34,598 bases of DNA. Origin: Bdellovibrionota bacterium. GTDB taxonomy: Bacteria; Bdellovibrionota_C; UBA2361; JBGSMV01. This document shows, one piece after another, positions 130 through 34,598 of the stretch. Both the position numbers and the translations under genes were made by a program. Positions within the stretch are counted from its first letter, which is position 1; each line of letters begins with the position of its first letter. The stretch lies in contig JBGSMV010000072.1 of the NCBI GenBank assembly GCA_041739995.1, positions 1-34,598 on the forward strand. The letters run 5' to 3'. The notes under the pieces are model-generated. The model worked only from the letters and a program-made list of their open reading frames with translations. It made no database searches and was not told where the DNA came from.

Positions 130-2988
130 ATGGCTGTTGAGCGAGGTGCGGTGAGCGCCCAAAAGTCTAAAGCATCTGATGCAAAGAACGGGACGGTGCC
201 GGCTGGGCCTTTTGCTGAATTTGGACAGAATCAGGGCTATGTCGAAGAGCTCTACAAGTTATTTCTTGCTGACCCATCGCTGGTAGGTGATTCCTGGGCG
301 CACTATTTTTCAAACATGCCGGGATTAGGGACTTCTTCCGCTGCGGTTACTTCTAACGGAGTGAGTCATGAAGTGACTCGGTCTGAAGTTCAGTCGCGTA
401 TCGGTGCCCGTGACCTAGATAGCCTGCTCGCCTTACAAGAGAGCGCCACTCGCTTGGTGTTCGCCTATCGTGAACGTGGGCATCTTGGCGCCAAAATTAA
501 TCCGCTTACACAAGGAGTCTCGGCTCTTCCCACTTGGCCGAATTTGAATCCGCAGGTCTTAGGCATTGGTTCGAACGATCTTTCCGCAGAAGTTCAGTGC
601 GCGGGGTTTGCCGGAAAGCATTCGATGCCACTGGGCGAGCTGATTGAGAGTCTGCAACAGACCTATTGCGGCTCGATTGGATTCGAGTTGGGGCACGTCT
701 TCGAGGCGGAAGAGCGTGATTGGTTGCAGCGCAAAGTCGAGCAAGATTTCGTGGCGCGTGGGTGGTTCTCAACTGAAGACAAGAAGATTTTCTTTCGAAG
801 GCTTCATGAGGCTGAGGCCATGGAGTCGGAGCTTCATCGCAGGTACGTGGGCTCTAAGCGCTTCTCACTTCAAGGTGGAGACACGCTACTGCCGATGCTC
901 GAGGTGCTCCTTTATGACGCAGGCGAGTGCGGCATTGAGCATGTCGTGATTGGCATGGCGCACCGCGGCCGCCTAAACGTACTCGCCAATATCACGGACA
1001 AACCGCTGCATCAGATTTTTACTGAGTTTGAAGACATTAGCATGGCGTCAGTTATTGGCGCTGGTGACGTGAAGTACCACCTCGGTGCTTCGAATCCGGT
1101 CAAGACTCGCGGTGGCAAGGAGCTCCTAGTGACTCTCGCTCCCAACCCTTCGCATCTTGAGATCGTCAACCCGGTGGTAACCGGCATCACTCGCGCCATT
1201 CAAGACGATATTCTCGAGAGGGACAGACAGAAGGCAGTAGCGTTACTTATACACGGGGACGCCGCGTTTATTGGGCAAGGTGTGGTTCCAGAGACTCTGA
1301 ACCTGGCGAACACGGCGGCTCACACAGTCGGCGGCACAGTACATTTGGTAATTAATAACCAAGTTGGTTTTACCACCGACGTGGCGGAGTCTCGTTCCAC
1401 CACTTACTGTACCGATGTTGCCAAGATCTGTAGTGCCCCGGTGTTGCATGTGAACTCTGAGGATGTTGAAGCCTGTTGCTGGGCTACGCGCATAGCTCTT
1501 GAGTATCGAAACAAGTTTGGAAAGGACGTAGTTCTTGACCTCTACTGCTACCGTAAATATGGGCATAATGAAGGAGATGATCCCACCTTCACTCAGCCCC
1601 TCATGTACGAAGAAATCAAACGTAAGCAGCCGCTTGCGGAAATGTACGCGGAAACCCTGATCGAACAAGGAATCATCTCAGCCGACGAACGCGGCGCCAT
1701 TGAAGAAGAGTATAGCTCAGAGTTTAAGGCGGCCGCCGAGACTTTGAAATTCAGCTCCAACATAGGAGAAGCGTGCGCGTTGTATGGCAAGCTCGCCGTA
1801 CCGTTTGAGTCGACAGCGGTAAAGCGCGAGGTTCTGGATGTTGTTGCGAATTCCTTGATAACCTTCCCTGCGCATTTCACACCGCATCCGAAGCTCAAGA
1901 CGATTCTTGAAAAGCGCGTGCAGTCCTACACAGAAGATAAGGGCATGGACTGGGGTATGGCCGAAGCGCTTGCCTTTGGTTCCATCCTTCTGAGTGGCAC
2001 CTCGATTCGCATGACTGGACAAGATGTTGGCCGTGGTACTTTTAGCCACCGCCACCTTGAATTACGCGACCACGAATCTCCGGCCCGTTTTTATCCACTG
2101 CGCGAGCTGGTGAAAGGGAACAGCGAGCAAACAGGAACGTCAGAAGAGGTGACGTTCGAGCTATATAACAGCACTCTCTCAGAAGAGGCGGTGATGGGCT
2201 TTGAGTTCGGCTACGCGGCGACTCATCCAAGTGCCTTAGTACTTTGGGAAGGTCAGTTCGGTGACTTCGCTAACGGTGCTCAAGTTATTATCGATCAGTT
2301 CTTGGCGGCTTCAGAAGTAAAATGGGGGCAACGTTCGGGCCTAGTGTTACTGCTGCCGCACGGCTACGAGGGACAAGGGCCGGAACACTCGAGCGCGCGT
2401 CTTGAAAGGTTCTTGCAATTATGCGCCGAGGGCAACATGAGCGTGATGTATCCCACTACGCCGGCTCAGTACTTTCACTTGTTGCGCACGCAAGCTCTCG
2501 CAGCGGTGCGCAGACCTTTAATCGTAATGACTCCGAAGAGTCTTTTGAGATCTCCGGATGCCACCTCGTACGTAAGCGATCTTACTGAAGGCCGCTTCGA
2601 GCCTGTGCTCACGGATGTGGTGGGAACTCCCAAGGCGGGAGGTCCGCTTTTCTTGATGAGCGGCAAAATCTTCTATGATGTCAGAAACGCGCTGGTTAAA
2701 AGTGAAAGCTCGGCCAGATTGGCGCGGGTCGAGGAGCTATACCCATTCCCTGAAAAGCAGCTAATGAAACTTGCTGAGGGCAAGGTGCCTTCAAAGGTCA
2801 TCTGGGTCCAAGAAGAGCCCCAGAATATGGGCGCATGGAATTTTGTCTGCCCGAAACTTGGCAAGATATTTGGAAAGGAGCTGCACTACGTAGGGCGCCC
2901 TGAGGGGTCGAGCACCGCTTGCGGATCGTCCAAGTGGCATGCGATTGAGCTTAAGCGCATATTAGAGGAAGTCCACGGGTTGCTTTAG
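130..2988 (+). CDS. sucA: 2-oxoglutarate dehydrogenase E1 component
   Basis: 952 aa with SucA motifs KRFSLQGGD, GMAHRGRLN, GDVKYHLG, ThDP-binding HGDAAF...NN, WEGQFGDFANGAQ, LLPHGYEGQGPEHSSARLERFLQ and WVQEEPQNMGAW. Confidence 0.97.
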   Translation: MAVERGAVSAQKSKASDAKNGTVPAGPFAEFGQNQGYVEELYKLFLADPSLVGDSWAHYFSNMPGLGTSSAAVTSNGVSHEVTRSEVQSRIGARDLDSLLALQESATRLVFAYRERGHLGAKINPLTQGVSALPTWPNLNPQVLGIGSNDLSAEVQCAGFAGKHSMPLGELIESLQQTYCGSIGFELGHVFEAEERDWLQRKVEQDFVARGWFSTEDKKIFFRRLHEAEAMESELHRRYVGSKRFSLQGGDTLLPMLEVLLYDAGECGIEHVVIGMAHRGRLNVLANITDKPLHQIFTEFEDISMASVIGAGDVKYHLGASNPVKTRGGKELLVTLAPNPSHLEIVNPVVTGITRAIQDDILERDRQKAVALLIHGDAAFIGQGVVPETLNLANTAAHTVGGTVHLVINNQVGFTTDVAESRSTTYCTDVAKICSAPVLHVNSEDVEACCWATRIALEYRNKFGKDVVLDLYCYRKYGHNEGDDPTFTQPLMYEEIKRKQPLAEMYAETLIEQGIISADERGAIEEEYSSEFKAAAETLKFSSNIGEACALYGKLAVPFESTAVKREVLDVVANSLITFPAHFTPHPKLKTILEKRVQSYTEDKGMDWGMAEALAFGSILLSGTSIRMTGQDVGRGTFSHRHLELRDHESPARFYPLRELVKGNSEQTGTSEEVTFELYNSTLSEEAVMGFEFGYAATHPSALVLWEGQFGDFANGAQVIIDQFLAASEVKWGQRSGLVLLLPHGYEGQGPEHSSARLERFLQLCAEGNMSVMYPTTPAQYFHLLRTQALAAVRRPLIVMTPKSLLRSPDATSYVSDLTEGRFEPVLTDVVGTPKAGGPLFLMSGKIFYDVRNALVKSESSARLARVEELYPFPEKQLMKLAEGKVPSKVIWVQEEPQNMGAWNFVCPKLGKIFGKELHYVGRPEGSSTACGSSKWHAIELKRILEEVHGLL

Positions 2989-22499: not shown

Positions 22500-24050
22500 A
22501 TGTCGGATGAAGGTTCTTCAGATTGCGCGTCTCCAGCGGGTTGTTGTGGCAATCCAGATTGCAAAGATAAAAGAAAGTCGCCGCTGCCCGCAGACGCACA
22601 TGCTGTGGTCGCCAGTCCAAAGGGAAAGCGCTCGAATGAGACCGCCCCCGAACTCGACTTTCGGGAGCAACTCTACACCCTAACCAAAGACGGTCGGCGC
22701 AAATGGGTGTATGCGGCTCTGGTCAAGGGAGCGATCTTCAATCGTCGAATAGTCGTCGTGACTATGCTTCTGGTAATATACCTCGGGCTCCCTTGGCTTA
22801 CTATTGGAGGTGAGCAGGCGGTAATGCTCAATATTGAATCCCGGAAGTTCGCATTTTTCGGCACGGTCTTTTATCCCACTGATACTGCCCTCTTGTTCGT
22901 TATATTAGCGAGTCTTGGACTTACCCTGTTTCTTGCCTCAGCCTTGCTGGGACGTATGTGGTGCGGATGGGCTTGCCCTCAGACTGTTTTCCTTGAGTTC
23001 GTATTTCGTCCCTTGGAGCGCTTGATCGAAGGCGGCCCCGCACAACGTCTGCGATTGGATCAACATCCTTATTCGAATGAGTGGTTTCTTAAGAAGGGGC
23101 TTAAGTGGATCGGCTTTGTCCTTATCGCCTGGATACTCGCGAGTACCGCGCTCGCATACTTTTGGGGGCGCGAAAATCTAATTGGGATGATGTCGCGCGC
23201 CCCGAGTGACAATTTTCTTCCGTTCGTTTTAACCCTTAGCTTCATGACCCTCGTACTGTTCGAGTTTGGATGGTTTCGAGAGCAATTTTGTACCTTGGTA
23301 TGTCCCTACGCGCGATTCCAGTCAGTTTTGATTGACCAGGATTCCTTGATTGTGGGCTATGATCCCGTTCGAGGCGAGCCGCGCGGAAAGCCGGGAAAGG
23401 TAGAGGGTGACTGCGTCGATTGCGGACTGTGCGTACGAGTGTGTCCAACTGGAATCGATATTAGAAACGGTCTGCAACTTGAGTGCGTGCAGTGCGCGGC
23501 TTGCATCGATGCCTGTGATTCGATCATGGTGAAAGTTGGGCGCGCACCCGGGTTAATTCGCTACGATAGCGAGAAGAATCTGCTACGACGCGAAGGGACG
23601 CGTTGGTTTCGTCCGCGAGTGTTCTTGTATTCTGCCTTGCTGCTTGCGCTGGGCGTTGCTTTTTTTTCGTTGTTAGCGACTCGTTCGCTCATTGATTTTA
23701 AAGTTGTGCGTGGTGGTGCCGATGTACCTTTTACGGTCTTAGCGGACGGTAGAGTGACCAATCATCTGCACGCACGCATTGGGAACAAGGGAAATCGGAT
23801 CGAGGCCTATGAGGTGCGGCTAGTGGGCTTTCCTCAAGGCACTCTCGTGGTGCCGCAGAGCCCTTTCCCGGTAGGACCTGGGGAGCAAAAGACGTTGCCG
23901 TTGTTTGTTACTTTTCCACGAGAGGTGCTCCCTAGTGGTCTTGGTAATGCAGGAATTGAGCTCGTTGCACCAGACGGAAGAACGTCGACGTCACTGATTA
24001 CGTTAATCGGTCCGCAGGGCAACATAGCAGATGCGGAGTCAAATCCGTGA
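22500..24050 (+). CDS. ccoG: cytochrome c oxidase accessory 4Fe-4S protein CcoG/FixG
   Basis: GRMWCGWACPQTVF, CPYARFQS, CVDCGLCVRVCPTGIDIRNGLQLECVQCAACIDAC. Confidence 0.95.
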   Translation: MSDEGSSDCASPAGCCGNPDCKDKRKSPLPADAHAVVASPKGKRSNETAPELDFREQLYTLTKDGRRKWVYAALVKGAIFNRRIVVVTMLLVIYLGLPWLTIGGEQAVMLNIESRKFAFFGTVFYPTDTALLFVILASLGLTLFLASALLGRMWCGWACPQTVFLEFVFRPLERLIEGGPAQRLRLDQHPYSNEWFLKKGLKWIGFVLIAWILASTALAYFWGRENLIGMMSRAPSDNFLPFVLTLSFMTLVLFEFGWFREQFCTLVCPYARFQSVLIDQDSLIVGYDPVRGEPRGKPGKVEGDCVDCGLCVRVCPTGIDIRNGLQLECVQCAACIDACDSIMVKVGRAPGLIRYDSEKNLLRREGTRWFRPRVFLYSALLLALGVAFFSLLATRSLIDFKVVRGGADVPFTVLADGRVTNHLHARIGNKGNRIEAYEVRLVGFPQGTLVVPQSPFPVGPGEQKTLPLFVTFPREVLPSGLGNAGIELVAPDGRTSTSLITLIGPQGNIADAESNP

Positions 24051-24571
24051 GCGACGGTGGGGGACAGATGTCTGGAGCAGGGGAGGTTGCGGTGAGCAGG
24101 CAAGCGCGTGTTGAGTTCTCCCCGTGGCCCTACGGCATCATGATTTTCTTCGTACTTCTGTTTGCTGGCGGCATTGCGTTGTACCTTGTTGCAGTTTCTG
24201 GCCCGTCAAAATGGCTCGAAGGCAATCCGTATGAAGATGGCATGCGATATCAGCAAGTCATTGAACAAGAGCAGCGCTTTCTCGCGCTTGGTTGGCTGGC
24301 ACAGACTGAAACATCTTCCGATGGTGCTCTCGTAGTGTCTCTGAGTGCACCAGACAATCAACCAGTCACCGGACGGGCGTTGTCCGTTTACCTCATGCGT
24401 CCCGGCGACAGCACTCTCGATCGGCGGCTGGTGATGACAGAGGACTCGAGTTTGAATGGCAGATATTTTGACCCTCACCACATTCCGCTGGCATCGGGCC
24501 TTTGGATCGTTGATTTGCAGATCCTTACAGACCAGGGCATGGCCCGTTCCAGGGCTCGTTTCGTCCGGTGA
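24047..24571 (+). CDS. fixH: FixH/CcoH family protein
   Basis: WP+TM segment, YEDGMRYQQ, RP.DSTLD and G.W motifs. GTG overlaps the ccoG stop. Confidence 0.8.
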   Translation: MSDGGGQMSGAGEVAVSRQARVEFSPWPYGIMIFFVLLFAGGIALYLVAVSGPSKWLEGNPYEDGMRYQQVIEQEQRFLALGWLAQTETSSDGALVVSLSAPDNQPVTGRALSVYLMRPGDSTLDRRLVMTEDSSLNGRYFDPHHIPLASGLWIVDLQILTDQGMARSRARFVR

Positions 24572-24671
24572 CCCAGAACCCCTATAGCGCCTCCTACTCT
24601 TTAGAAAACCAGAACTAGAAAACTGGTTTCCTTAATAGGGGTCTCAGGGTACTCTTTCCCGTATTAGGACT

Positions 24672-24757
24672 TCTGTGTCCCTCTGTGTCCCTCTGTGCTC
24701 CTCTGTGGTGAGTCCTCCTTTTTGATTCACCACGGAGGTTCACAGAGGTACACAGAG
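24672..24757. repeat. inverted repeat of tandem 10-bp CTCTGTG-containing units directly upstream of the recombinase
   Basis: Four units at 24672-24711 (ctctgtgtcc-like, ending ctctgtggtga) face 24727-24757 (tcaccacggaggttcacagaggtacacagag), giving a long potential hairpin. Confidence 0.85.
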
Positions 24758-24777
24758 AAATTCTTGGAGCGTCTCTC

Positions 24778-25878
24778 GTGGCACGGAATGTCGAGAAGAA
24801 TTCCCCTTCTGTAATTGCACGCGAATCTTTCGCCGATTCTTCTCACGAGGTCTGGCTGCGCATCACCGCCTTTCTTTCTCTCAAAGCACCACTTACTCAA
24901 GAAACTTACAAAGGCGTCCTGACCGAATGGTGCAAGTTCCTTAAAACTGAGCCCGGCACTCCGGAATCTGCCGCTGCCATGGTAAAGGCCAAAGACCTGC
25001 ACGCCATTGCGTTCCGCAGCTACCTCGACAAACGGCCCGGCGAGCGTCCCAGAAACCAGTCGAGTACCTCTAAGAGTGACGCTATTGATGTCCGCCGCGG
25101 CTTACGTAAAGAGAAACGCACCGGACTCGAGTCGACGCAGTCGAACGCAACTATCGCCAAGAAGTTCGCCGTTCTTAGACGTATATATCGGGTCTTAATG
25201 GCTGCGAATTTAGGAATCATTCAAAATCCTTTTGATAGCGATCTTGTACCGCCACCACCAAAGGAATCAGGCCGAAAGCGTCCCACGAAGATGCTTGATT
25301 TCTCGGTAGTGAAAAAAGTAATTGCACAGAGCGATGATTCAACACCCAAAGGTTTACGCGACAAAGCAATTCTGTGCGCGTTGTTCGGCGGCGCGCTGCG
25401 CCGTGGCGAAGTTATTTCGCTGCGTGTTGGTGACGTACAAAGAACCCCTTCTGGAACATCGTTCTTTTATCTGCGCGCAACCAAAGCAAAGCGTGATGCG
25501 CAGCAAGCATTACCGAAATGGGCCGCGGAAGTTATCGAGCGTCTCGTGAAGCAGCGTGTCAAAGAGGGTGCCCTTGCCGGTGACAGATTGTTCGTGAGCT
25601 ATACCGGCCGCGGTGGAAAAGTCGCGACCAAGTCCCCTATTTCTCCTTCTGGTATTTACTCGCTCTTTCGCCGCGTGTGCGACGCAGCCGGCGCCGGCGA
25701 GCATCTATCCCCCCACTCCGCTCGTGCAACTGCGATTACCAGGCTGTTAGCCGAAGGTGTGCCGCATAGAGAAGTGCAGGAGTTCTCCAGGCACTCGAGT
25801 ATTCAGATGGTTGAGCTTTATGATAAGCGCAGGATTGGGGTGGATGAGAATGTTGGACGGGGGTTGGATTACGATTGA
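24778..25878 (+). CDS. tyrosine recombinase/integrase (XerC/D-like)
   Basis: Full catalytic set: R (GALRRGEV), K (ATKAK), HxxR (PHSARAT), H (SRHSS) and Y (VELYD). N-terminal core-binding domain ends ATIAKKFAVLRRIY. Confidence 0.93.
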   Translation: MARNVEKNSPSVIARESFADSSHEVWLRITAFLSLKAPLTQETYKGVLTEWCKFLKTEPGTPESAAAMVKAKDLHAIAFRSYLDKRPGERPRNQSSTSKSDAIDVRRGLRKEKRTGLESTQSNATIAKKFAVLRRIYRVLMAANLGIIQNPFDSDLVPPPPKESGRKRPTKMLDFSVVKKVIAQSDDSTPKGLRDKAILCALFGGALRRGEVISLRVGDVQRTPSGTSFFYLRATKAKRDAQQALPKWAAEVIERLVKQRVKEGALAGDRLFVSYTGRGGKVATKSPISPSGIYSLFRRVCDAAGAGEHLSPHSARATAITRLLAEGVPHREVQEFSRHSSIQMVELYDKRRIGVDENVGRGLDYD

Positions 25879-25913
25879 CCTTCAATCGTCAGATCTGATT
25901 TAGCCTAGGGCAA

Positions 25914-26216
25914 TCAAGCTACAGCGGTCTCGGCAGGTTCGATCTTCTTCAAGATTGGCTCAATTTTTCGCTCTGCAATTCTAAGATCGTACTCTTGCTG
26001 TAGGTTAAGCCACACCTTAGGGCCGGTTTTAAGATACACACCAAGGCGCAGGGCTGTGTCAGGGGTAATAGCTCTCTTTCCCTGCACGATGCTATTGATG
26101 CGACGCACGTCTACGCCTATCGCGATGCTCAATCGATTTTGACTGATGCCGAGGGGAGCCATGAAATCCTCACGAAGAATAAACCCCGGATGAATTGGTT
26201 TTAACTTCCCTTTCAT
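25914..26216 (-). CDS. higA: HigA family addiction-module antitoxin (HTH)
   Basis: PIHPGFILREDFM, RINSIVQGKRAITPDTALRL and WLNLQ..YDL. Confidence 0.92.
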   Translation of the reverse strand: MKGKLKPIHPGFILREDFMAPLGISQNRLSIAIGVDVRRINSIVQGKRAITPDTALRLGVYLKTGPKVWLNLQQEYDLRIAERKIEPILKKIEPAETAVA

Positions 26217-26225
26217 AGCGCCTCA

Positions 26226-26504
26226 CTAATGATAATCAACAATCTCAACATCGTAAGCGTCGCCATTCATCCACTTGAAGCAGATGCGCCATTGCTGGTT
26301 GATGCGAAAACTAAACTGTCCCTTCCTGTCACCCCGTAGCGCTTCAAGACGGCTACCTGGAAAAGCACCCACAACCTGTAACGACTCCGCTGCGTGCAGG
26401 TAAAGAAGTTTTTTCCTCGCCTGCTTCTCAATCGAGTGAAAACGAGCTACGCGCTTATCGCGAAAAAGTTTCTCTGTGTCTCTACAGAGGAAGGACCTGA
26501 TCAT
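26226..26504 (-). CDS. higB: HigB family RelE-like toxin
   Basis: MIRSF...TEKLF, RLEALRGDRKGQFSFRINQQWRICFKW and VEIVDYH. Toxin gene lies upstream of the antitoxin gene. Confidence 0.92.
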   Translation of the reverse strand: MIRSFLCRDTEKLFRDKRVARFHSIEKQARKKLLYLHAAESLQVVGAFPGSRLEALRGDRKGQFSFRINQQWRICFKWMNGDAYDVEIVDYH

Positions 26505-26743
26505 AAGAATATAGCATTATACGCTTAGCATCAAACGCAATAGTCGATATGCATTGATTTCAATGTGTTGTAGCGAATTATCGTAGTCTCATTTCGCGTG
26601 TGCCCGCTGCAGCTCGGCGTTCCACTAAGGGGCGCGTAAGTCGGCGACGAACGATTATCGGAGAGCTCGGCCGGAAAGTTTCCTGGGGATGGTACCCCAA
26701 TGCCAATTGCCCTACCCTCGGAGACCCTGGGGTCGGGAACAGA

Positions 26744-26768
26744 GTTGTTCAGTCGACAAAGTTAGCGG
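26744..26768 (+). repeat. repeat C, copy 1 (copy 2 at 31320-31344)
   Basis: gttgttcagtcgacaaagttagcgg vs gctattcagtcgacaaagctatcgg, 21/25 identical. Confidence 0.7.
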
Positions 26769-26783
26769 GGGGTCCCGCCATAT

Positions 26784-26854
26784 ATGAATATGATAACCTG
26801 ATGAACCTGATGAATTTATAGAATTATCAAAGTAGCCCGGCTCCATATCGTAAA
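26784..26854 (+). repeat. repeat B, copy 1 (copy 2 at 32461-32522)
   Basis: atgaatatgataacc...aaagtagcccggct..atcgtaaa. 53/62 identical to copy 2 after removing a 9-bp tandem duplication (cctgatgaa) in this copy. Confidence 0.85.
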
Positions 26855-26858
26855 AACG

Positions 26859-29800
26859 TCAGCGATACTCGCCACCGACCTTCGGCTCTTTCCCAATAAG
26901 CTGATCGAGTTGACCTCTTAAATTTTCGAGCTCAATAAACAATTTTCCTCTAGGGAACAGCCCCAGAGAGCCGGACTGCTTCGGTGTGTTCGGCGACCAA
27001 GCGTTTCCATCGTCCAGGCGAATGAGTATGAGCCCTCCCCTTTCTCCCAACGCTTGAACTGAAGCGCTCGCGAAACCGACCGGAGTAATGCGCTTTATGA
27101 ATGTCCGGGCTTTCATAATCTCGGCATCAATTTCCTGAATGCGTGCGCGAAGTTCTTCTTCTGTGGCTACGTCCCGCAGGACATCTTGAGCGACCGGTAA
27201 GACAAACGGAGCAACCGACCCCTGCTCACCACTCCACGAAAGCGTGCCTTGCTCGACAAGCTTTGAACCGGAGAGTGCATTCAACTCGAGGCCTGTCTGT
27301 ACTCCCTCGGCGAATAAGTTGAGATTCATCAGAGTCGCACGGAGGTTTACGGAATCTACCTGAGGCCCTTGTTGAGTTTGGCCATTTGATCTTTCACCCG
27401 CAAACGCTGCTCTTAACTCTCGAATCGCCTCCGCCGGTGCATTGCCTCGCAACTCATCAAGAATTTTAGGATTAACCACCAGAGCCCGTGCAAGCTGGGT
27501 CATTCTTTCCCCATAGTGGCGCGGATAAAGGTCAGCCAAAATCGATTTTTCCAAAAAGAAGTCTTGGAGCGGAATTGTCTTTGCCAACCTCCTATATTGA
27601 TCCCCAGAGTTCTTGCGCGCCTCTAAAATAACTTTATCGTCGACTACTTTGTATGCGCCAGAAACGGTGGCTTCCCGTGCACCCTCTTCCGCTGTCCACG
27701 ACTCATTGAGCAAGGTATTCAGCAACGTCGGAATGTCCGTACCTTTCCAGGCGGCATTGAAATGGGCTGGAGAGCGAAGTCCTCCGGGGTGGCGATCATA
27801 ATCGTAGCTCCAGTAGGGTGGAACCCAGTTGCCAGTCGAAGGCCCCCTGCCCCAGAGGCCATCCTTCTTGTAGCTCTCCAAATCCAAGCATGGAAATGTC
27901 GAATAGTTCGAAACGTACGCACTCCCATTTGCAAACTCTGGAGCCGCGGCTCCATCGGGAAGAAATCTGCCCTCATCAAACGAACGGCGGTAAAGCGGAA
28001 TCGTCTCAGGGAGCAGTTTCGCCAACGCTCCCGTAGGATCGAGTTCATTCAGACGGTTCTGATCAATAACAATCGAGACGTTCGTGGTGAGTACGAGATG
28101 TCGCCCTTTAAAATTGGCGTTAAACATCTTGCCGTCCGCCGACATCGATGCGGAAATGTGAGCCACTCCCATCGCAAGCAACGACTTCGCTTCGTTTGGA
28201 ATACGATCGGCTTCGATTTGAATATCTGCGCGTGTTCTCTGATCACCATGAGAGACGACGGGAGAGTTTATCTCGGTTGGAGCCATATGGTGCGAAGCGA
28301 GCAAGTCAATCGCCTCAGCCTCATGCCCAGGCTGCACCGGCGCAGATAAGGGGTGCTCTTCGCGCGTAAGGGCGGCCTCGAGGTGGGCTTTAATGCGTGC
28401 CCACGAAGTTTCATAGGCCGCGAGACTCACCTCAGCTAAAGCCGGCGTGCGGACATAGTCTTCCGTGAGTAGAATAGAATCGATTATGGGAAGAATGGGC
28501 TCAAGGTCCTCCGTGTTCAGCATCATCCTGTCCGGACTTCCTCTCAGCAGCGCGACCAGAGCTGAGCCGGCGTCAAGAACTTCTTGTGGATTGTGTAAGT
28601 TGGCAGGGAGGCCGCTAATCCAATTTACGTGCGCTTCAGGAGGCGGGGCTAGTATTAAGCTCAAGCCTTTCGGGCCAAGCAGATCGGACAGAGAACCAAA
28701 CCGCTCTACGATCAGTCGATCGTCCCACGGCCCCTGCGATCGCCCTCCGTACTGGATAACATCTTCGACATTGAACCCACTCCCACTGAAGAAGCCTCTC
28801 CCGGAATACTCAACCACGTGGTCAATCAGATCAGATCTGAGTTTTTCGTAGCTTTCAAGCGGAACTAAGTTGCCAGTACCGGGATCAATCGTTCGATCAT
28901 TGAAACTGAGGCGAAGAGCGGTTCGATAGTCAGGCAAGTTGAGCCCCGCCTCGGCGGCGAGTACCGGCAGTTCAAGTACCGAGCTTCTACGTTCGAGTCG
29001 CTCAAATCGATTTCGAAAGCGCGCCTGTTCGACGATTTCGCGATATAGGTCCACATGTATTCTATGGATACGAACATCGAGCGCGCCAAGGTCACGATTG
29101 ATACCCGCTCGCAGATCGTTGAGATTGTCTTTGAGCGCTTCGAATTCATTGTCAATGTTGCCCGCGAGTTCTTCCACTTGGCGGCTGACCATTCGAATCA
29201 AATCCGCATTCTGAGTGATGGCCTGCAGGATAATTTTCTGATTTGCAATGATTGTTCCTTGGCGCTGATAAATGAGTTCCTCAATGCTTGGCCCATGATC
29301 GCCGCCTCCGAAAATCGACGAGAAAATGTTTGCTACCCCTGAAGCAATCCCGCCGATTCCGGTGAAGTCACCACCGCATACTCGAGCTATTCCGAACGCG
29401 AGATTGGCCCCACCCTCTAATCCAAGCGCGACTCGGTCTATGGTTCGGGCAGTGTCAGGATCGAAGTAGCCAACAATTTGGGCCACTGCGCTCGCCGTTT
29501 GTGCCGAGGTTTCCAAAGTTTTCCCGGCTGTTTCGGCATAGGCTGCAAAATCCTTCGCGGATATCTCACCTCTCTCAAGTTCGCGCCCCTTCTTAACGAG
29601 CTCTTCTTGGGTCGCGCCTGACCTAGCGGTGACAATCGCCAGAAGACGTTCAGTCTGCTCGGGAGTGAGGTAAATCTCGACCTGATTTTCGACACCGCCT
29701 GCCTCACCGGATGCGGTTTTCTCTTCAGGAGAGATTCCAGAGCTCGGGGAGTCTGAAGTTGGAGACGGGTTCCCCACGAGTCGCATTATTCGCTCCACCG

Positions 29801-31073
29801 CTGATGCCGTCTTTAGTGCGGTGTCAGGGTCCTGAGTTTCCAATTGGTGGAGGAGTTCGTCAGTGGCGGCGGTCAGCGCGGCCTGCTTATTCAGAGTGCT
29901 TTCTCCCGACGCGATATTGCGCGAGTACTCGAGTAGCCGCTCGCGCAGCGCCTTCAACTCAGGCGTCCGCAGGACGCTCAAATCCTTCCGGATTTGCTCT
30001 GCTTCATTAGCCAGCCGCGTGTTAGATGTTTGGTTAACGGGCTGCGCAAGTTGAGCCATTAGCTCCTGCGCATCAGCAGAAACTGCTTGGATGTACCGAT
30101 CAAAACCATGCTCCTCAAGCGCGAGCTTGCTCCAATCAATCGGCTCCTCGAAAGAAAGTTTTGCAACGGGATCGCCCGGATTTCGGTTGGTGATAACACG
30201 CACTCCATTCGCGAATCGGTCGGTTGGCATGGGCGATCCAGCGGTAAGCACCGCGATGTTGGCGAGATATGTACTTGCTTGAACTCTAGTGATTTCGCCC
30301 TTCTTAACTCGATCGTTCAGCTCCTCCTGATATCGCCTAGTGGCATCTGCTGCATTGATTGCACCCTGACTGTGCCCTAGGAGAAGAAACGTCTTCCCAT
30401 TTTCAACGGTGCCCTTCATGAGCAGCAGCAACGTGTCAGTGGCGCGTTCGCTGTTGAATCTTGGTGAAACAAATCGACCGCCGGAGGCATCGAATAGATC
30501 CTCGAAAATACCGGTAGTCGAGTCCGCTCCATCGAATGCACGACCGACAAACCCTCCCATTCGTTCTCGCAAGCTGGTGGCGGGATCGATAGGAAGTAGT
30601 CCCGGGGTCGGAAACACTGGCCCCAAGAAATCTTCAATCGGGCCCTTAAGATTACGCCGTGTCCAGTCTTGGTTACGTCCCACCCCGGACTCATTGTATA
30701 CGGGGATTATCGGCAGCCGTATTCGATCCGCGAGCTGTTGGGACGTCGAATTCAGAATATCGAGCGGGGTGTTGATGCCGTTCGTATATGCGGCAGTAAC
30801 TCGTTCGTGCAGTGGCGCCAGCACACGAGGTTGATAAGGAACTCCCGCGTTCCCATCCACAAGTAATGAATTGAGGAGCTGCCGGTTTAAGCGTTCATCA
30901 TTTTCAACCCACTCTCCAAAACGCCCAGGAGCGTCTGGTTGCGGCCCAACAGCTGGCACTGGCGGAAGAGAGGCTTCCTGCCCCTGAACGGATGGCAGGC
31001 TTCCAAACCCGACGGCAAGACTTGCGGTAAGTAATTGGGTTTTCGTAGCTAGCGAGCGCATACACAACTCCAT
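26859..31073 (-). CDS. large secreted protein: alpha/beta-hydrolase domain plus toxin-like hydrophobic hairpin and coiled coil
   Basis: Signal-peptide-like N-terminus (start may be 31061). GHSQG at 30363-30377, then TAGSP, GDPV and EHGF. A Gly-rich hydrophobic stretch (GANLAFGIARVCGGDFTGIGGIASGVANIFSSIFGG) is followed by heptads. Confidence 0.7.
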   Translation of the reverse strand: MELCMRSLATKTQLLTASLAVGFGSLPSVQGQEASLPPVPAVGPQPDAPGRFGEWVENDERLNRQLLNSLLVDGNAGVPYQPRVLAPLHERVTAAYTNGINTPLDILNSTSQQLADRIRLPIIPVYNESGVGRNQDWTRRNLKGPIEDFLGPVFPTPGLLPIDPATSLRERMGGFVGRAFDGADSTTGIFEDLFDASGGRFVSPRFNSERATDTLLLLMKGTVENGKTFLLLGHSQGAINAADATRRYQEELNDRVKKGEITRVQASTYLANIAVLTAGSPMPTDRFANGVRVITNRNPGDPVAKLSFEEPIDWSKLALEEHGFDRYIQAVSADAQELMAQLAQPVNQTSNTRLANEAEQIRKDLSVLRTPELKALRERLLEYSRNIASGESTLNKQAALTAATDELLHQLETQDPDTALKTASAVERIMRLVGNPSPTSDSPSSGISPEEKTASGEAGGVENQVEIYLTPEQTERLLAIVTARSGATQEELVKKGRELERGEISAKDFAAYAETAGKTLETSAQTASAVAQIVGYFDPDTARTIDRVALGLEGGANLAFGIARVCGGDFTGIGGIASGVANIFSSIFGGGDHGPSIEELIYQRQGTIIANQKIILQAITQNADLIRMVSRQVEELAGNIDNEFEALKDNLNDLRAGINRDLGALDVRIHRIHVDLYREIVEQARFRNRFERLERRSSVLELPVLAAEAGLNLPDYRTALRLSFNDRTIDPGTGNLVPLESYEKLRSDLIDHVVEYSGRGFFSGSGFNVEDVIQYGGRSQGPWDDRLIVERFGSLSDLLGPKGLSLILAPPPEAHVNWISGLPANLHNPQEVLDAGSALVALLRGSPDRMMLNTEDLEPILPIIDSILLTEDYVRTPALAEVSLAAYETSWARIKAHLEAALTREEHPLSAPVQPGHEAEAIDLLASHHMAPTEINSPVVSHGDQRTRADIQIEADRIPNEAKSLLAMGVAHISASMSADGKMFNANFKGRHLVLTTNVSIVIDQNRLNELDPTGALAKLLPETIPLYRRSFDEGRFLPDGAAAPEFANGSAYVSNYSTFPCLDLESYKKDGLWGRGPSTGNWVPPYWSYDYDRHPGGLRSPAHFNAAWKGTDIPTLLNTLLNESWTAEEGAREATVSGAYKVVDDKVILEARKNSGDQYRRLAKTIPLQDFFLEKSILADLYPRHYGERMTQLARALVVNPKILDELRGNAPAEAIRELRAAFAGERSNGQTQQGPQVDSVNLRATLMNLNLFAEGVQTGLELNALSGSKLVEQGTLSWSGEQGSVAPFVLPVAQDVLRDVATEEELRARIQEIDAEIMKARTFIKRITPVGFASASVQALGERGGLILIRLDDGNAWSPNTPKQSGSLGLFPRGKLFIELENLRGQLDQLIGKEPKVGGEYR

Positions 31074-31283
31074 CTTCTAGCGGTAAAGCCGATCGAGAGT
31101 TTTATATACTCTGACCGGATTTGGAATGGCATCGCAGAGTCGCGAAGAAAGTCAATGAGTTAAGGGTGACAGGGTGAGTACTGCCCGGGCTTCTCCGTAG
31201 AGACCAACGCCACTTAGTAAGTTGCTAAGTGATTGCGTGCGCTCTACCTGCGCTATACCAACTGCATCAAAACCGCCCTGCTC

Positions 31284-31383
31284 CTTCGGAAATGTTGGCA
31301 TGTACCAATGAGGAGCCAGGCTATTCAGTCGACAAAGCTATCGGTGTGCCCTCTTTCGGGAATGTTGACATGTACCAATGAGG
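31284..31383 (+). repeat. repeat A copies 1 and 2 (30-bp site) around a 40-bp spacer
   Basis: 31284-31313 is CTTCGGAAATGTTGGCATGTACCAATGAGG. 31354-31383 is tTTCGGgAATGTTGaCATGTACCAATGAGG and ends 7 bp from the mrr stop codon. Confidence 0.95.
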
Positions 31384-31390
31384 TCCGTCT

Positions 31391-32293
31391 CTATTCCTCA
31401 ATAAAATAATCCGAATCAATCCGCTTCACGGAATAACTCGCGACATCCGCCACGCCCAATCCAAAGTCGATCATATAGTTAGCAAGTTGCTCGCCGTCGA
31501 TCAGAACGATCTTTGCTTCGACCTTACTAGCAAATTCGAGCGCCTCGGCGGAGAACCGAGACGAAGAAATGAATACTCCCTTCTTTGCGCGCTGGCCTTG
31601 CAGAGCGCCTGCAAACTTCTGAATTTCTGGGCGTGAAACAACCCCCTCCCAGCGCTGTGCCTGAATGTAGATAACATCGAGACCAAGGCGGTCTTCCTTG
31701 ATGATACCGTCGATGCCTTCGTCTCCAGACCTGCCGATGGCCTGGCCGGCGTCGAGTCGCGAGCCGCCGTAACCCATTTGTACTAGAAGGTCGACAACGA
31801 GTTTTTCAAAGCGCTCTGGAGACATTTCTTTAACCTTCGCTAGCAGCTCGTCCGCTAGAGCGCTGCGAATTGTGCGGTAGCTGCTTTCGAGCGTTTCTTC
31901 TGGCGTTTGATTGGACTCAATCTCTGGCTCGCTTACCGGTTGGTCGGATGTAGTAGATCTGTTCTGAAACTTTTTAAAGTCAGGGAATTGATGAAGGAAC
32001 TTCGTCCGAATGTCGGCATCGGTGCCAAGCGCTTCTTTGCCCTTCTGGGTAATCTTAACAAAGCCGCGTCGAGGCGATTCAACTAGCCCGGCCATTTTGA
32101 GGTACGTCTTGGCCCATCCTACGCGATTATCAAGCAACGACTGTGTGCCGGTGGGGATGCGCAGAGCGCGGTCCGCAGAGGTCAGCTTAAAACGTACAGC
32201 CATCGCCTCGTACATATCCTTAACAGCTAGCTCCTTCTCGTTTGAAAGGAGCGCAAGTAAGGGACGCATGAATGTTTGGTAGTCAGGGACCAT
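31391..32293 (-). CDS. mrr: Mrr family type IV restriction endonuclease (catalytic Lys appears replaced by Gln)
   Basis: Mrr_N (PDYQTFMRPLL...NRVGWAKTYLKMAGL) plus Mrr_cat (FEKLVVDLL..MGYG, GDEGIDGII, YIQAQR, LIDGEQLA). Confidence 0.93.
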   Translation of the reverse strand: MVPDYQTFMRPLLALLSNEKELAVKDMYEAMAVRFKLTSADRALRIPTGTQSLLDNRVGWAKTYLKMAGLVESPRRGFVKITQKGKEALGTDADIRTKFLHQFPDFKKFQNRSTTSDQPVSEPEIESNQTPEETLESSYRTIRSALADELLAKVKEMSPERFEKLVVDLLVQMGYGGSRLDAGQAIGRSGDEGIDGIIKEDRLGLDVIYIQAQRWEGVVSRPEIQKFAGALQGQRAKKGVFISSSRFSAEALEFASKVEAKIVLIDGEQLANYMIDFGLGVADVASYSVKRIDSDYFIEE

Positions 32294-32460
32294 GGGGGGA
32301 TTCTATCTCGATGAGTCCATCGTGAATATAGGCGGGTCGATCCAGCTCCCGTAAAAGCCCGATCCTTAAGAACCCCCCGCGCCACTGGAGAGCTTAGGAC
32401 CCGGGCCACTCTGGGGGAGCCGAAGGAGCGGGACGATCAGTAGCGGAGCTCTCTTCATAA

Positions 32461-32522
32461 ATGAATATGATAACCCCATGAATCTATGGAGTTATTAAAG
32501 TAGCCCGGCTTCGAATCGTAAA
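32461..32522 (+). repeat. repeat B, copy 2
   Basis: See 26784-26854. Confidence 0.85.
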
Positions 32523-32540
32523 TTGTGTCGTGAAGAGGTG

Positions 32541-32603
32541 GTGCAGATCGGGCGGGTCAGGGCGGCCGTCGGAAATGTTTCGGCCTTCGGAAATGTTGGC
32601 ATG
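32541..32603 (+). repeat. repeat D, a partial repeat A, and the left half of a repeat A interrupted by the IS
   Basis: gtgcagatcgggcgggtcagggcggcc resembles 34312-34338. It is followed by gtcggaaatgtt (partial A) and CTTCGGAAATGTTGGCATG (32585-32603), which is fused to the IS end. Confidence 0.9.
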
Positions 32604-32951
32604 TGTATGGTCCCGTCCTGTCAATCTCCTTGTGAGCGTTTGCCTGATGCCTCAGAGTAAAAGCAGGAGCGCTTGTGTATCCGGCTTCCGGAAGAGTGTC
32701 GTCTTCCTGAGCCATGATGGAATGCGCGACAACTCCAGACGACCTGATTGCACCACCGGCGTTTTCCGCCTCATACCAACGCAGGGTCCGCAGGAGTAGT
32801 TAAGCTACTTTCTTGCCATCAGCACCAATCTATTCAGTCCCACAAGGTTTGACGATATCTGTTACGCAGCAAGCTTTTCCTCCGTAATCGGAGATGGGCG
32901 AAACTGCTCATCGGGTTTCACCAGCAAGTGCCAAATTACCCGAGCGTTCTT
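32602..32951 (-). mobile_element. IS110-family (IS1111-type) remnant: transposase C-terminus, 3' non-coding region and right end
   Basis: Minus strand 32951-32862 encodes KNARVIWHLLVKPDEQFRPSPITEEKLAA*, the typical IS110 C-terminal KxARxxWxLL motif. About 260 bp of non-coding DNA follows and ends TTGACAGGACGGGACCATACA, with an outward-facing TTGACA at 32624-32619. Confidence 0.88.
32665..32825 (-). ncRNA. predicted IS1111-type bridge RNA (seekRNA); ends approximate
   Basis: Two stem-loops with internal loops. Target loop: CCUG-CGUUGGUAUGA-GGCG(GAAAA)CGCC-GGUGGUGCAAU-CAGG. Donor loop: CGC-GCAUUCCAUCAU-GGCU...AGCC-GGAUACACAA-GCG. The guide segments match the flanking target and the IS end. Confidence 0.8.
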
Positions 32952-32979
32952 TCGGAAATGTTGGCATGTACCAATGAGG
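32950..32979 (+). repeat. repeat A, intact copy at the IS truncation point
   Basis: tTTCGGAAATGTTGGCATGTACCAATGAGG directly abuts the transposase fragment. Confidence 0.95.
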
Positions 32980-33087
32980 TTACGAAAATCCTGGCCGGGG
33001 CTTGGAGTATGAGTGAATCGCTTTTAGGGGCAATTTAGAAATACCCTAAAAGCCCCTGAAATTTCTTGAAGTGTCCTAAACCGCCAA

Positions 33088-33543
33088 TTAAGCGGCTAGT
33101 TTTCGAGCATCCACCTCGACTTCAGTTGATCTTCCACTGTCCATGACGTTCTCGAGAAAGGTATATAGATCAACAAGTTCAGAACACTTGGAAGTTAGCT
33201 TATGTAGAACAAAAAGCCTGATATCCTTCTCGGTCGCCCAGTTTACATCAGTGGATTTATTCTTCATGTTTTCCCACTTCATAACAGCAGGGTGAGTCAC
33301 TCCGAATCTTTTCGCGAACTGCTGAAGGGTCATCTCGAAATGTTGCCTGATAAAACGGACTTCACTGCCAGTGAGTTTACTATTTTTTTCGCAGAGCTCC
33401 TTCAGAACAACTTCAGCAAGCAAATTATAATTGATTGCTGGAGTCCATTTGCCCCTGATTCTTGTCATGGGAACATTCAGAAGCTTGACTGGAAAACCAA
33501 ATCCAAGATCAATGTGAGATCTCTTAAATTTTTGTTCCATCAT
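33088..33543 (-). CDS. Xre-type HTH protein, MqsA-like antitoxin
   Basis: LTGSEVRFIRQHFEMTLQQFAKRFGVTHPAVMKWE HTH. Start overlaps the upstream gene stop (ATGA). Confidence 0.8.
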   Translation of the reverse strand: MMEQKFKRSHIDLGFGFPVKLLNVPMTRIRGKWTPAINYNLLAEVVLKELCEKNSKLTGSEVRFIRQHFEMTLQQFAKRFGVTHPAVMKWENMKNKSTDVNWATEKDIRLFVLHKLTSKCSELVDLYTFLENVMDSGRSTEVEVDARKLAA

Positions 33544-33848
33544 CTTTGCTCCAATTCAATAGCCGTAATGATCAGCATGTTATTTTCATCAAACGAGATG
33601 ATTACTCGAACATCTCGCTTATCAACCGTCTTGCCCCTAATGGCGTAGTTCCAGGCTTTATATCGATCTTGATACTGATCTTTACTTTTCTCATGTCTTC
33701 CATTCTTCAATACATAGAGAATTTCGGGTCTATGAATCATTCTCTCCGATTGCCTATCTGTCGCATGCCTCGTATCAAGATAAAGTCCATGGTCTATACA
33801 GTGCCGCACTCGTTCAAGGACGTTTGGTATTTTTTCTCTCTTGAACAC
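33540..33848 (-). CDS. DUF4258-like putative TA toxin (RelE-like fold)
   Basis: TRHATDRQSER.I...EILYVLKNG, YAIRGKTVD.RDVRVIISF and IITAI. Translationally coupled to the HTH gene. Confidence 0.75.
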   Translation of the reverse strand: MFKREKIPNVLERVRHCIDHGLYLDTRHATDRQSERMIHRPEILYVLKNGRHEKSKDQYQDRYKAWNYAIRGKTVDKRDVRVIISFDENNMLIITAIELEQR

Positions 33849-33856
33849 GCATTGTA

Positions 33857-33885
33857 ATTGTAACTGAGTTACAATGAGGTTTCAA
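33857..33885 (-). promoter_or_regulatory. sigma70-like promoter overlapped by a palindromic operator
   Basis: Minus strand TTGAAA (33885-33880)-N17-TACAAT (33862-33857). Perfect inverted repeat ATTGTAACT-G-AGTTACAAT at 33857-33875. Confidence 0.75.
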
Positions 33886-34206
33886 GCAACTTTTTTGCTG
33901 GACAACACGCGGACGTAAGAGATTACGAAAAAATTTGCACAGGAATCCATATAACTAGCTGAGCTTATTAATAATTGCCAGGCTACTAGCTGACGGCGCA
34001 CGACTGTCCGGTTAGCTAGCAAGTGCCAATCTTCATGCACGTCAGATAGTTACGTGACTGGCCCGGCTCGGAGGAAACTTTTCGTGCGCCCCGCCGATAA
34101 GACCGACTCCTGGCCCAAAAATAAACGGAGAATTATCACCAATGAAGTCAGCATCAGAAACAATTCGAACAACCCCCCTACTGGTCGGCCTCTACCATGA
34201 AGTGGC

Positions 34207-34367
34207 CTTCGGAAATGTTGGCATGTACCAATGAGGCTACATAAAGGGGCTCAACAAACAGGTAGAAGATATAAGCGAGGCTTCGAAATGTTGGCATGTA
34301 CCAATGAGGCTGTGCTGATCGGGCGGGTCAGAGAGGCCTTCGGAAATGTTGGCATGTACCAATGAGG
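34207..34367 (+). repeat. three tandem copies of repeat A with 44- and 28-bp spacers
   Basis: Copies at 34207-34236, 34281-34309 (one G missing) and 34338-34367. The second spacer contains repeat D. Confidence 0.95.
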
Positions 34368-34370
34368 CTA

Positions 34371-34598
34371 ACGCGCCCGCACGGGGCGCGACCCCCCGCC
34401 TTTTGCTGCTCCGCTTGAAGGTAGAGTTTCAATCCACGCGCCCGCACGGGGCGCGACAGGAAACCTCGCCGACATCAAATGGGTTTATAGTGTTTCAATC
34501 CACGCGCCCGCACGGGGCGCGACTTGCTTGTGTTGGGGACTTATTGACGCAGCAGCAGGTTTCAATCCACGCGCCCGCACGGGGCGCGACTCACGACA
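34371..34598 (-). CRISPR. type I-C-like CRISPR array, probable trailer end (continues beyond the window)
   Basis: 32-bp repeat GTCGCGCCCCGTGCGGGCGCGTGGATTGAAAC (minus strand) at 34426-34457, 34492-34523 and 34559-34590, plus a truncated copy at 34371-34392. Spacers are 33, 34 and 35 bp. No cas genes in the window. Confidence 0.96.

Follow-up and report, generated by a model that had tools for sequence, protein, structure and literature searches.

Repeat A is an apparently palindromic sequence of approximately 31 nt that recurs in direct orientation within contig JBGSMV010000072.1 (34,598 nt; the whole contig is referred to as the window) of an uncultured Bdellovibrionota bacterium (assembly GCA_041739995.1, here G000). 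Our analysis points tentatively, with a probability of roughly 45%, to a lineage-specific repetitive extragenic palindromic (REP)-type repeat that would be the recognition site of a Y1-HUH enzyme similar to the REP-associated tyrosine transposases (RAYTs), and whose edge junctions with truncated DNA would stem from cutting or strand transfer outside the palindrome. Observed were the repeat family itself, a link between look-alike repeats and Y1-HUH genes in sister genomes, the insertion of an IS110/IS1111-type insertion sequence (IS) into one copy, and the positions of the junctions.

Results

Sequence and copies of Repeat A

A 29-nt pattern allowing up to 3 mismatches gave six matches in the window, all on the forward strand, with 0.00 expected from 100 shuffles. 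In the whole genome, a metagenome-assembled genome of 3.8 Mb in 81 contigs in which the window makes up the entire contig C20, the same pattern occurred seven times in forward and not once in reverse orientation, with six matches on C20 and one on the 2.8-kb contig C80. A profile search added a half copy (match at 32582 to 32604, E value of 1.8e-4) and otherwise nothing below an E value of 0.5. In total, G000 holds seven full copies and one half copy on a single strand, seven of the eight inside positions 31283 to 34367 (Table 1). The unit of about 31 nt has the conserved sequence C(C/T)TTCGGAAATGTTGGCATGTACCAATGAGG, extended by CT(A) in some copies, and its core is GTTGGCATGTACCAATG. The palindrome reads TTGG-CATGTA-CCAA with variable outer pairs, and the hairpin predicted for the single strand consists of an outer stem, a 7-nt bulge, and an inner TTGG/CCAA stem.

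Close copies are spaced 58 to 73 bp apart. Because diverged linker repeats, designated X, Y, and Z (78 to 87% identical between occurrences), lie between or beside the copies, the locus is a mosaic and not a simple array; following linker Z, the start of Repeat A is partially duplicated in tandem (32565 to 32590). In seven of the eight copies, the dinucleotide CT stands immediately 5′ of T(T)CGG, and the IS junction described below reads GTTCT/TTCGG; immediately 3′ of GAGG, CT is found in three of the seven full copies. A short terminal redundancy, (GA)GGC before and GAGGC after the repeat, had been proposed in a sequence-only reading of this DNA for several copies. It is present in three of the eight (34208, 34281, and 34339) and absent from the rest, and an alternative reading of these bases is an inverted repeat of short length (GCCT...AGGC; GCTCCT...AGGAGC at 31285). 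One frame of Repeat A encodes (A/S)FGNVGMYQ followed by a stop codon, so that several chance open reading frames (ORFs) share this C terminus, with no sign of use; the candidate ORF at 34142 to 34234 reads as it had been described and had no match in Pfam or NCBIfam.

Truncated DNA at the edges of Repeat A

The sequence-only reading held that an IS transposase gene is cut at an intact copy of Repeat A, leaving about 29 codons, and homology bore this out. The remnant (32865 to 32951, reverse strand) translates to KNARVIWHLLVKPDEQFRPSPITEEKLAA followed by a stop codon. Its first 15 residues align in BLASTP to residues 319 to 333 of a 341-residue IS110-family transposase of the related genome G040, with 11 of the 15 identical (E value of 7e-6); the G040 ORF contains the domains DEDD_Tnp_IS110 and Transposase_20 (PF01548 and PF02371). 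The identification came from six-frame translations of 124 genomes of the phylum, in which the remnant was matched weakly in six other genomes, all of one genus, with two of these matches at the end of 352-residue open frames. The remnant had no Pfam or NCBIfam match at E values up to 10, no tblastn match among plasmids, and no match in a DNA comparison with the 123 other genomes. Since the lysine codon at 32949 to 32951 is the outermost homologous codon and overlaps the first bases of Repeat A, the break lies 0 to 3 nt from the left edge of the repeat, and this is how far homology of the IS110/IS1111 type extends.

At the right edge of another copy, which ends at 34367, the last 22 nt of a 32-nt clustered regularly interspaced short palindromic repeats (CRISPR) repeat begin 3 nt further on (34371 to 34392); that this repeat is 10 bp short and 3 bp from the copy, as had been noticed, is correct, and within the array it stands at the trailer end. 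From the window, the array extends onto contig C19 and there through a leader into a complete type I-C operon (cas2-cas1-cas4-cas7-cas8c-cas5-cas3), which means that it is transcribed leftwards and that the Repeat A cluster lies at its trailer end. On C80, a 204-residue sialidase-like ORF, which encodes three BNR blades behind a signal peptide, runs into the Repeat A copy at 2438 to 2466. Its homologues comprise at least 380 residues, one of them aligning from the N terminus, and the missing half of the gene is absent from the whole assembly; a break at the repeat edge is plausible here, the position being resolved to approximately 60 nt only. Mapping of the breakpoints of the IS remnant and the CRISPR repeat thus placed both at the edges of Repeat A and not at its centre, in agreement with the earlier claim. 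Of the three cut-offs proposed in the sequence-only reading, these two hold, whereas the ORF at 34142 is no more than a candidate gene.

Insertion of an IS110/IS1111-type element into a Repeat A copy

Of the IS, only the final 343 bp are left. Its left end is missing, as had been stated, but the other end is nevertheless present and abuts the half copy of Repeat A at 32607/32608. Intact related elements, bounded by terminal inverted repeats of 12 nt, are present in G040 and G097, and in both genomes the same end is joined, in two differing flank contexts, to the sequence CCTGGCATGT of a REP-like target. The flank directly adjoining the right end, TGGCATGT, is identical in G000, G040, and G097, which indicates insertion at a fixed target position. 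Judged from these comparisons, the half copy at 32586 to 32607 is a Repeat A copy split by an IS110/IS1111-type insertion at this fixed position. With the half copy recognized as an insertion product, the main reason for reading a crossover in the 6-bp core falls away. A noncoding region downstream of the transposase gene, as in the remnant, is described for the IS1111 group in PMC11187229, where REPs are also named as the target of ISPa11 and attC sites as that of other members; ISPpu9 is located in REPs according to PMC12288879 (on REP targeting, see also PMC1525189).

As candidate seekRNA guides, six 6-mer matches between the noncoding region and Repeat A were counted; the shuffle mean was 4.2 and 544 of 2000 shuffles reached the count, which is therefore not significant. 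Three reverse-complement 6-mers of Repeat A (TTTCCG, CCTCAT, and ACCAAC) stand side by side at 32763 to 32781, with ACCAAT 45 nt further on; these may be guides, with the same lack of significance by shuffling. Two further remains of such elements were noticed. In G000, positions 51304 to 51435 of contig C58 hold a second orphan IS110 transposase fragment (residues 53 to 96, 43% identical to the G040 copy), which is fused in frame to a thioredoxin/DsbA-like tail and has no Repeat A nearby. On contig C42 of G105 (L014; approximately 1162 to 1560, reverse strand), an IS of the same type is cut within its transposase gene, from GARIALRY on, and is flanked by two palindrome arms, GGTACAGGGT and ACCCTGTACC.

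Look-alike repeats beside Y1-HUH genes in sister genomes

Searches with a 26-nt Repeat A pattern and up to 3 mismatches found no match in 60 relatives, and collections of genome contigs and metagenome contigs contained no Repeat A locus. The core GTTGGCATGTACCAATG, in contrast, recurs in sister genomes with 1 to 4 changes. A 20-nt core gave 11 matches in 9 of the 60 relatives versus 4 for the reversed control. In five chosen genomes, three of them of the same family, a 16-nt core was enriched over the reversed control in these three (58 versus 20 in G004, 38 versus 13 in G002, and 44 versus 25 in G001) and not enriched in G042 (13 versus 12) and G017 (24 versus 18). The sites take the form GGTGGTATGTACCAG in G004 and GTTGGTATGTACCAATG in G003, where they occur as inverted doublets approximately 110 nt apart.

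Clusters of one to four look-alike sites adjoin genes for Y1-HUH proteins of approximately 330 residues at 6 of 12 Y1 loci, namely on C7, C57, and C33 of G004 and on C140, C84, and C29 of G001. Where sites are present on both flanks of the gene (G004 C7 and C57; G001 C140 and C84), they are inverted across the two sides. An alignment of nine of these proteins displays an H-x-H motif, the second histidine of which is invariant (H62), and a Y-x-x-x-N-P motif (Y121, N125, and P126). The best match of the resulting profile to a solved structure was E. coli TnpArep (4ER8; E value of 4.9e-6), with ISDra2 TnpA at an E value of 0.2, and Pfam Y1_Tnp was detected in two of the three proteins scanned. 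The protein encoded on C68 of G000 is 26 to 33% identical to most of the relatives' proteins and up to 42% identical to one G002 copy. Y1 remnants were found neither on C20 nor on C80 or C19.

On C7 of G004 (L054/L081), four look-alike sites spaced 22 to 31 bp apart are followed by a promoter-like block, ACGCAACTTTT...CACGATAAG, and the same block also stands 5′ of the Y1-HUH gene, as if sites and promoter were one portable unit. On C68 of G000 (L094; 1677 to 3183), the complete RAYT-like gene has behind it the last 88 residues of a sugar transferase (Bac_transf), a further truncated gene next to a Y1-HUH gene; an IS91-type transposase considered for the C70/C68 region was rejected for want of Pfam support. 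A separate repeat of G000, GTAGCCCCGGTACAG, which does carry the tag of classical REPs, resembles a classical GTAG-tagged REP/RAYT pair together with the multicopy Y1-HUH gene that it flanks. This repeat family is found at the end of C42, at the starts of C55 and C23, and on 12 other contigs, and the assembly breaks at the multicopy gene.

The surrounding island

The public runs containing the stretch are labelled as hot-spring and biofilm metagenomes. Positions 1 to 24571 of the window are occupied by housekeeping genes (sucA, valS, and the cco/fix operon), and a variable island starts at 24778 with a tyrosine recombinase gene, followed by HigBA, a 1404-residue orphan, an Mrr endonuclease, and a DUF4258/helix-turn-helix (HTH) toxin-antitoxin (TA) pair. 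All island genes except that of the recombinase lie on the reverse strand. The recombinase is 50 to 75% identical among 79 of 123 genomes and may be the chromosome-dimer resolvase of the lineage; its loci share no synteny across relatives, the neighbours varying. The 1404-residue protein (26859 to 31073, reverse strand) appears secreted and lacks a Pfam or NCBIfam match. The TA module at 33088 to 33878 is the sole part between repeat copies that is common to other genomes (10 of 123 others); its homology to G004 and G057 ends at these two positions, and no REP-like sites were found near the loci in those genomes. Between fixH and the recombinase gene, an 80-nt imperfect palindrome of CTCTGTG and CACAGAG repeats (24672 to 24760) gave spurious microRNA matches in Rfam and may be an island border or a terminator. 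An Rfam scan of positions 24000 to 34598 at E values up to 1 left Repeat A unmatched and returned only weak CRISPR-DR9 and microRNA-like matches at 24680 to 24758.

Table 1. Features of the Repeat A locus; positions refer to the window unless another contig is named
Feature	Position	Strand	Remarks
Repeat A copy, full	31283..31313	+	Flanks GCTCCT...AGGAGC
Repeat A copy, 2 mismatches	31353..31383	+	Ends 7 nt from the stop codon of the intact Mrr gene
Repeat A copy, left half only	~32584..32607	+	Conserved up to TTGGCATGT, then IS end instead
Repeat A copy, full	32949..32979	+	First 3 bases are also the transposase lysine codon
Repeat A copy, full	34206..34236	+	
Repeat A copy, 1-nt deletion	34279..34309	+	
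Repeat A copy, full	34337..34367	+	Linker Z ahead
Repeat A copy on C80	2438-2466 (C80)		
IS110/IS1111-type right end and 257-nt noncoding region	32608..32864	-	End checked against the intact G040 and G097 elements
Transposase C-terminal end, last 29 codons and stop	32865..32951	-	Cut at left edge of the next Repeat A copy
Trailer-end CRISPR repeat	34371..34392	-	Lacks last 10 nt in transcription direction
Three full type I-C CRISPR repeats	34426..34590	-	Array goes on in C19
Linker repeat X	31324..31351	+	Second occurrence 26748-26775, 82% identical
Linker repeat Y	32445..32522	+	Second occurrence 26768-26854, 78-82% identical
Linker repeat Z	32535..32579	+	Second occurrence 34306-34350, 87% identical
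Candidate ORF, 30 codons	34142..34234	+	Ends at TGA within Repeat A; 21 codons outside repeat
Tyrosine recombinase gene, where housekeeping genes give way to the island	24778..25878	+	Candidate actor in a rival explanation; link to repeat unevidenced
Mrr-type restriction endonuclease gene, complete	31391..32293	-	Mrr_N and Mrr_cat
TA module (DUF4258 protein, HTH/MqsA-like antitoxin)	33088..33878	-	Includes operator palindrome

Discussion

A proposed reading: Repeat A as a REP-type repeat cut at its border

According to the reading favored here, Repeat A would survive in G000 as a small mosaic, resembling a bacterial interspersed mosaic element (BIME), of copies and linkers X, Y, and Z. The mosaic lies within a defence and TA island, where the type I-C CRISPR array has its trailer end, and an IS110/IS1111-type element of a REP-homing family has split one of the copies. 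An HUH enzyme would cut just outside the palindrome and join the border to a weakly specified site elsewhere; such joining would delete or capture DNA while the repeat stays intact, and would thereby stop the IS transposase gene, the C80 gene, and the last CRISPR repeat. This mechanism, and with it the involvement of an HUH enzyme, its identity, and the time of its action, we infer from the E. coli enzyme and the sister genomes. In PMC3333891, E. coli TnpArep is described as binding the folded REP and cleaving single-stranded DNA upstream and downstream of it, with only CT required at the cut, and its strand transfer as being able to build tandem BIMEs. An enzyme class that cuts outside the palindrome would set an intact repeat directly against a truncated gene, which a crossover in a central core cannot do, and the location of all eight copies on the same strand is expected of a strand-specific process acting on single strands. 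The CT positions and the shared strand are consistent with HUH cutting, in a suggestive manner only. Because the enzyme gene is absent from the cluster, the actor would have worked in trans, have been lost, or never have acted in G000.

Several observations weigh against this interpretation. The predicted hairpin is weak, with DNA fold z-scores of -1.24 to +0.58 that are no better than those of shuffles, and the outer stem is retained in only three of the eight copies; the CT before TCGG may belong to the repeat itself. Homology resolves a single junction, that of the IS, to the nucleotide. The GTAG/CGTC tag of classical REPs is absent from Repeat A, the high and dispersed copy number of REPs is not seen (3.8 Mb hold 8 copies, and a 3.1-kb stretch accounts for 7), and its copies are direct, in contrast to the inverted REP doublets known from the relatives and the literature. 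The exact repeat is absent from the 60 relatives and the contig collections, which leaves no second direct-repeat array for comparison. No Y1-HUH gene stands beside the cluster in G000, where the sole complete Y1 homologue (C68) has no such sites within 1.5 kb and is one of the 6 of 12 Y1 loci without look-alike sites, and the multicopy Y1 gene of the same genome is flanked by the other repeat, GTAGCCCCGGTACAG (26 copies with up to 2 mismatches). The most suitable classification of Repeat A is thus as a REP-type repeat, belonging to a RAYT-like family and atypical in having no GTAG tag, few copies, and direct orientation. Its kind, a REP-like repeat with an IS110-type insertion, is already known; the cassette-like direct arrangement found no counterpart in the genome and metagenome searches made.

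The sequence-only reading had offered three mechanisms for the edge junctions, none of which fared well. Site regeneration after IS disruption was not seen, since the disrupted copy at 32586 to 32607 is still a half copy. Microhomology-mediated capture or deletion is disfavored by a microhomology of at most 3 nt (CTT) at the IS junction, and nothing was found in support of templated addition at DNA ends. The membership of Repeat A in a REP-like family linked to Y1-HUH genes had escaped that reading.

Alternative explanations

An unlikely but still credible alternative accepts Repeat A as REP-like and holds the truncations to be passive, the work of imported fragments, fragile or recombination-prone spots, and illegitimate recombination or slippage, with no dedicated enzyme. 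REPs are rearrangement hot spots, the cluster has no gene for a cognate enzyme next to it, the island has been patched together from mobile modules (HigBA, Mrr, and the TA module), and the partial tandem duplication of the repeat start looks like slippage. Unguided breakage, however, would hardly produce three junctions at or near the border (0 to 3 nt for the IS remnant, 3 nt for the CRISPR repeat, and the C80 break, resolved to approximately 60 nt only) with the repeat intact in each case; microhomology does not exceed 3 nt, and the weakness of the hairpin makes it a poor slippage or fragile site.

We consider it improbable that Repeat A is the 11-6-11 core (GGAAATGTTGG CATGTA CCAATGAGGCT) of a Xer-like tyrosine recombinase and that its modules were integrated serially, in the manner of the integrative mobile elements exploiting Xer (IMEX) at dif/pdif sites on Acinetobacter plasmids. 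Such a history would suit the direct orientation of all copies, as after serial integration, and the genes between them, which lie on one strand with a copy after each. The recombinase gene at the island border, 5.4 kb from the cluster, would supply the enzyme; it is single-copy and conserved in 79 of the 123 other genomes of the phylum, and G000 has no canonical XerD above the cut-off. The same conservation in single copy marks it as probably a housekeeping gene, and its score of 68 bits compares with Xer cut-offs of approximately 330 (22.8 versus 265 for the integron integrase, TIGR02249). Core crossover cannot set an intact site against a truncated gene, and the apparent "hybrid" site at 32586 is accounted for by the IS insertion. 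In 19 relatives, no Repeat A-like site was found within 1.5 kb of the recombinase gene save one weak match in G003; the look-alikes of the relatives are multicopy, occur in both orientations, and stand beside Y1-HUH genes and not beside the recombinase.

Little credence is likewise given to Repeat A as one end of a DDE or rolling-circle transposon yet to be identified, with adjacent deletions or one-ended transposition as the source of the junctions. An edge-precise junction beside an intact terminal repeat is the classic signature of adjacent deletion, the 58- to 73-bp spacing recalls multiple subterminal transposase-binding sites, and the G004 look-alikes surround a gene in inverted clusters, much as the ends of a transposon would. 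Against this, neither the window nor the genome contains an inverted partner copy or a transposase beyond the unrelated IS remnant, conservation among the copies does not extend into either flank except for linkers X and Z, and truncated DNA is found at both edges (the IS and C80 gene on the left and the CRISPR repeat on the right).

A more far-reaching version of the REP/HUH explanation, in which the array would be a working cassette system driven in trans by a Y1-HUH (RAYT-like) enzyme, appears doubtful and is put forward with considerable reserve. Border cuts would release or insert units of repeat plus cargo, and misplaced second cuts at CT would truncate neighbours.

An assembly artefact, that is, unrelated contigs joined at a shared 31-mer, can be dismissed as very improbable: the repeat does have a common k-mer length of 31 bp, coverage is low (depth of 2 to 6), and one Logan contig of run X2 joins 34205 to 31283 via the repeat, but contigs of four runs (one study, possibly including the source sample, so that their support is not independent) bridge the 32951 copy with at least 30 nt on each side, other Logan contigs bridge the half copy, the 31285/31355 pair, and 34204 to 34364, and an artefact would not produce copies set apart by substitutions and an indel and accompanied by diverged linkers. 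The possibility that the reads would expose chimeras at the repeats, raised in advance, was not borne out beyond k=31 effects at most junctions; the junction between the 34339 copy and the CRISPR repeat was bridged by none of the listed Logan contigs. The X2 joint, from the left flank of the 34208 copy to the right flank of the 31285 copy, would also be expected of an excised circle or a duplication; as it occurs where the run lacks coverage of the competing branches, it is explained by a k=31 graph and counts as evidence neither way.

Significance

The locus bears on the spread of REPs and on the cellular role of RAYT enzymes. It provides three junctions of an intact REP-like repeat with identifiable truncated DNA (an IS gene, a CRISPR repeat, and a sialidase-like gene) and is in this sense a natural record of cut positions. 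It also reveals a REP family with unusually large RAYT-like proteins (approximately 330 residues) in an uncultured hot-spring lineage, together with an IS1111-type element homing to it. If an HUH enzyme cut at the repeat border, REP borders would be sites of deletion and capture in a defence island, and the DNA lost there would include the old end of the CRISPR array. Were the array a working cassette system, it would amount to integron-like gene capture with HUH chemistry, able to erode a CRISPR array, and would be a route to cassette birth; if the truncations were passive, the locus would be ordinary island debris.

Comparison with known systems

With dif/pdif sites and IMEX, the locus has in common sites of 28 to 31 bp with a small inverted core and a 6-bp centre, and small modules that are often TA modules. 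However, pdif sites alternate in orientation, recombination at the core leaves edge truncations unexplained, and the relatives' look-alikes are multicopy and in both orientations, unlike the single conserved dif site. Integron cassettes and clusters of attC sites lacking integron integrases (CALINs) are similar in their direct repeats, each following the 3′ end of a gene on one strand, in their TA and defence content, in a crossover at the edge of the attC site, and in being targeted by IS1111-type elements. They differ in that RYYYAAC...GTTRRRY (R''/R') is found neither in nor around Repeat A, which is half the minimal length of an attC site.

IS200/IS605 elements and their miniature derivatives, the palindrome-associated transposable elements (PATEs), share the Y1-HUH chemistry, end hairpins in direct orientation on one strand, and cleavage at a distance from the hairpin, hence sharp ends; the Repeat A pairs 58 to 73 bp apart could be mini elements consisting of ends only. 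Unlike in IS200/IS605, the left flanks of Repeat A show no conserved tetranucleotide target, no TnpA or TnpB gene lies between the copies, and the gene-flanking clusters of the relatives are inverted. For the IS remnant, the IS110/IS1111 elements (IS621, ISPpu9, and ISPa11) are the closest comparison, with a DEDD transposase C terminus, inverted repeats in the intact relatives, a long noncoding region 3′ of the transposase gene, and a fixed insertion position in a REP-like target; the remnant departs from them in comprising the last 343 bp only and in guide matches that do not exceed chance.

REP/BIME repeats with their RAYT (TnpArep) Y1-HUH transposases have been described in E. coli and Pseudomonas (PMC3333891, PMC2817692, PMC3116915). 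Repeat A deviates from them in lacking the GTAG/CGTC tag, in its low number of copies (8, of which a single island holds 7) and their uniformly direct orientation, and in a very short stem of 4 to 6 bp; the sister-genome proteins of approximately 330 residues are twice the length of the 165-residue E. coli chain and have a conserved C-terminal extension, and the cognate gene does not adjoin the G000 cluster. The resemblances are an apparently palindromic repeat of approximately 31 bp, diverged linkers in a mosaic, and service as the target of an IS110-type element. Moreover, near-identical cores adjoin Y1-HUH genes of the sister genomes at 6 of the 12 loci, in inverted clusters where both flanks carry them, the protein profile has TnpArep as its best match, and the Repeat A junctions lie outside the palindrome, as does TnpArep cleavage.

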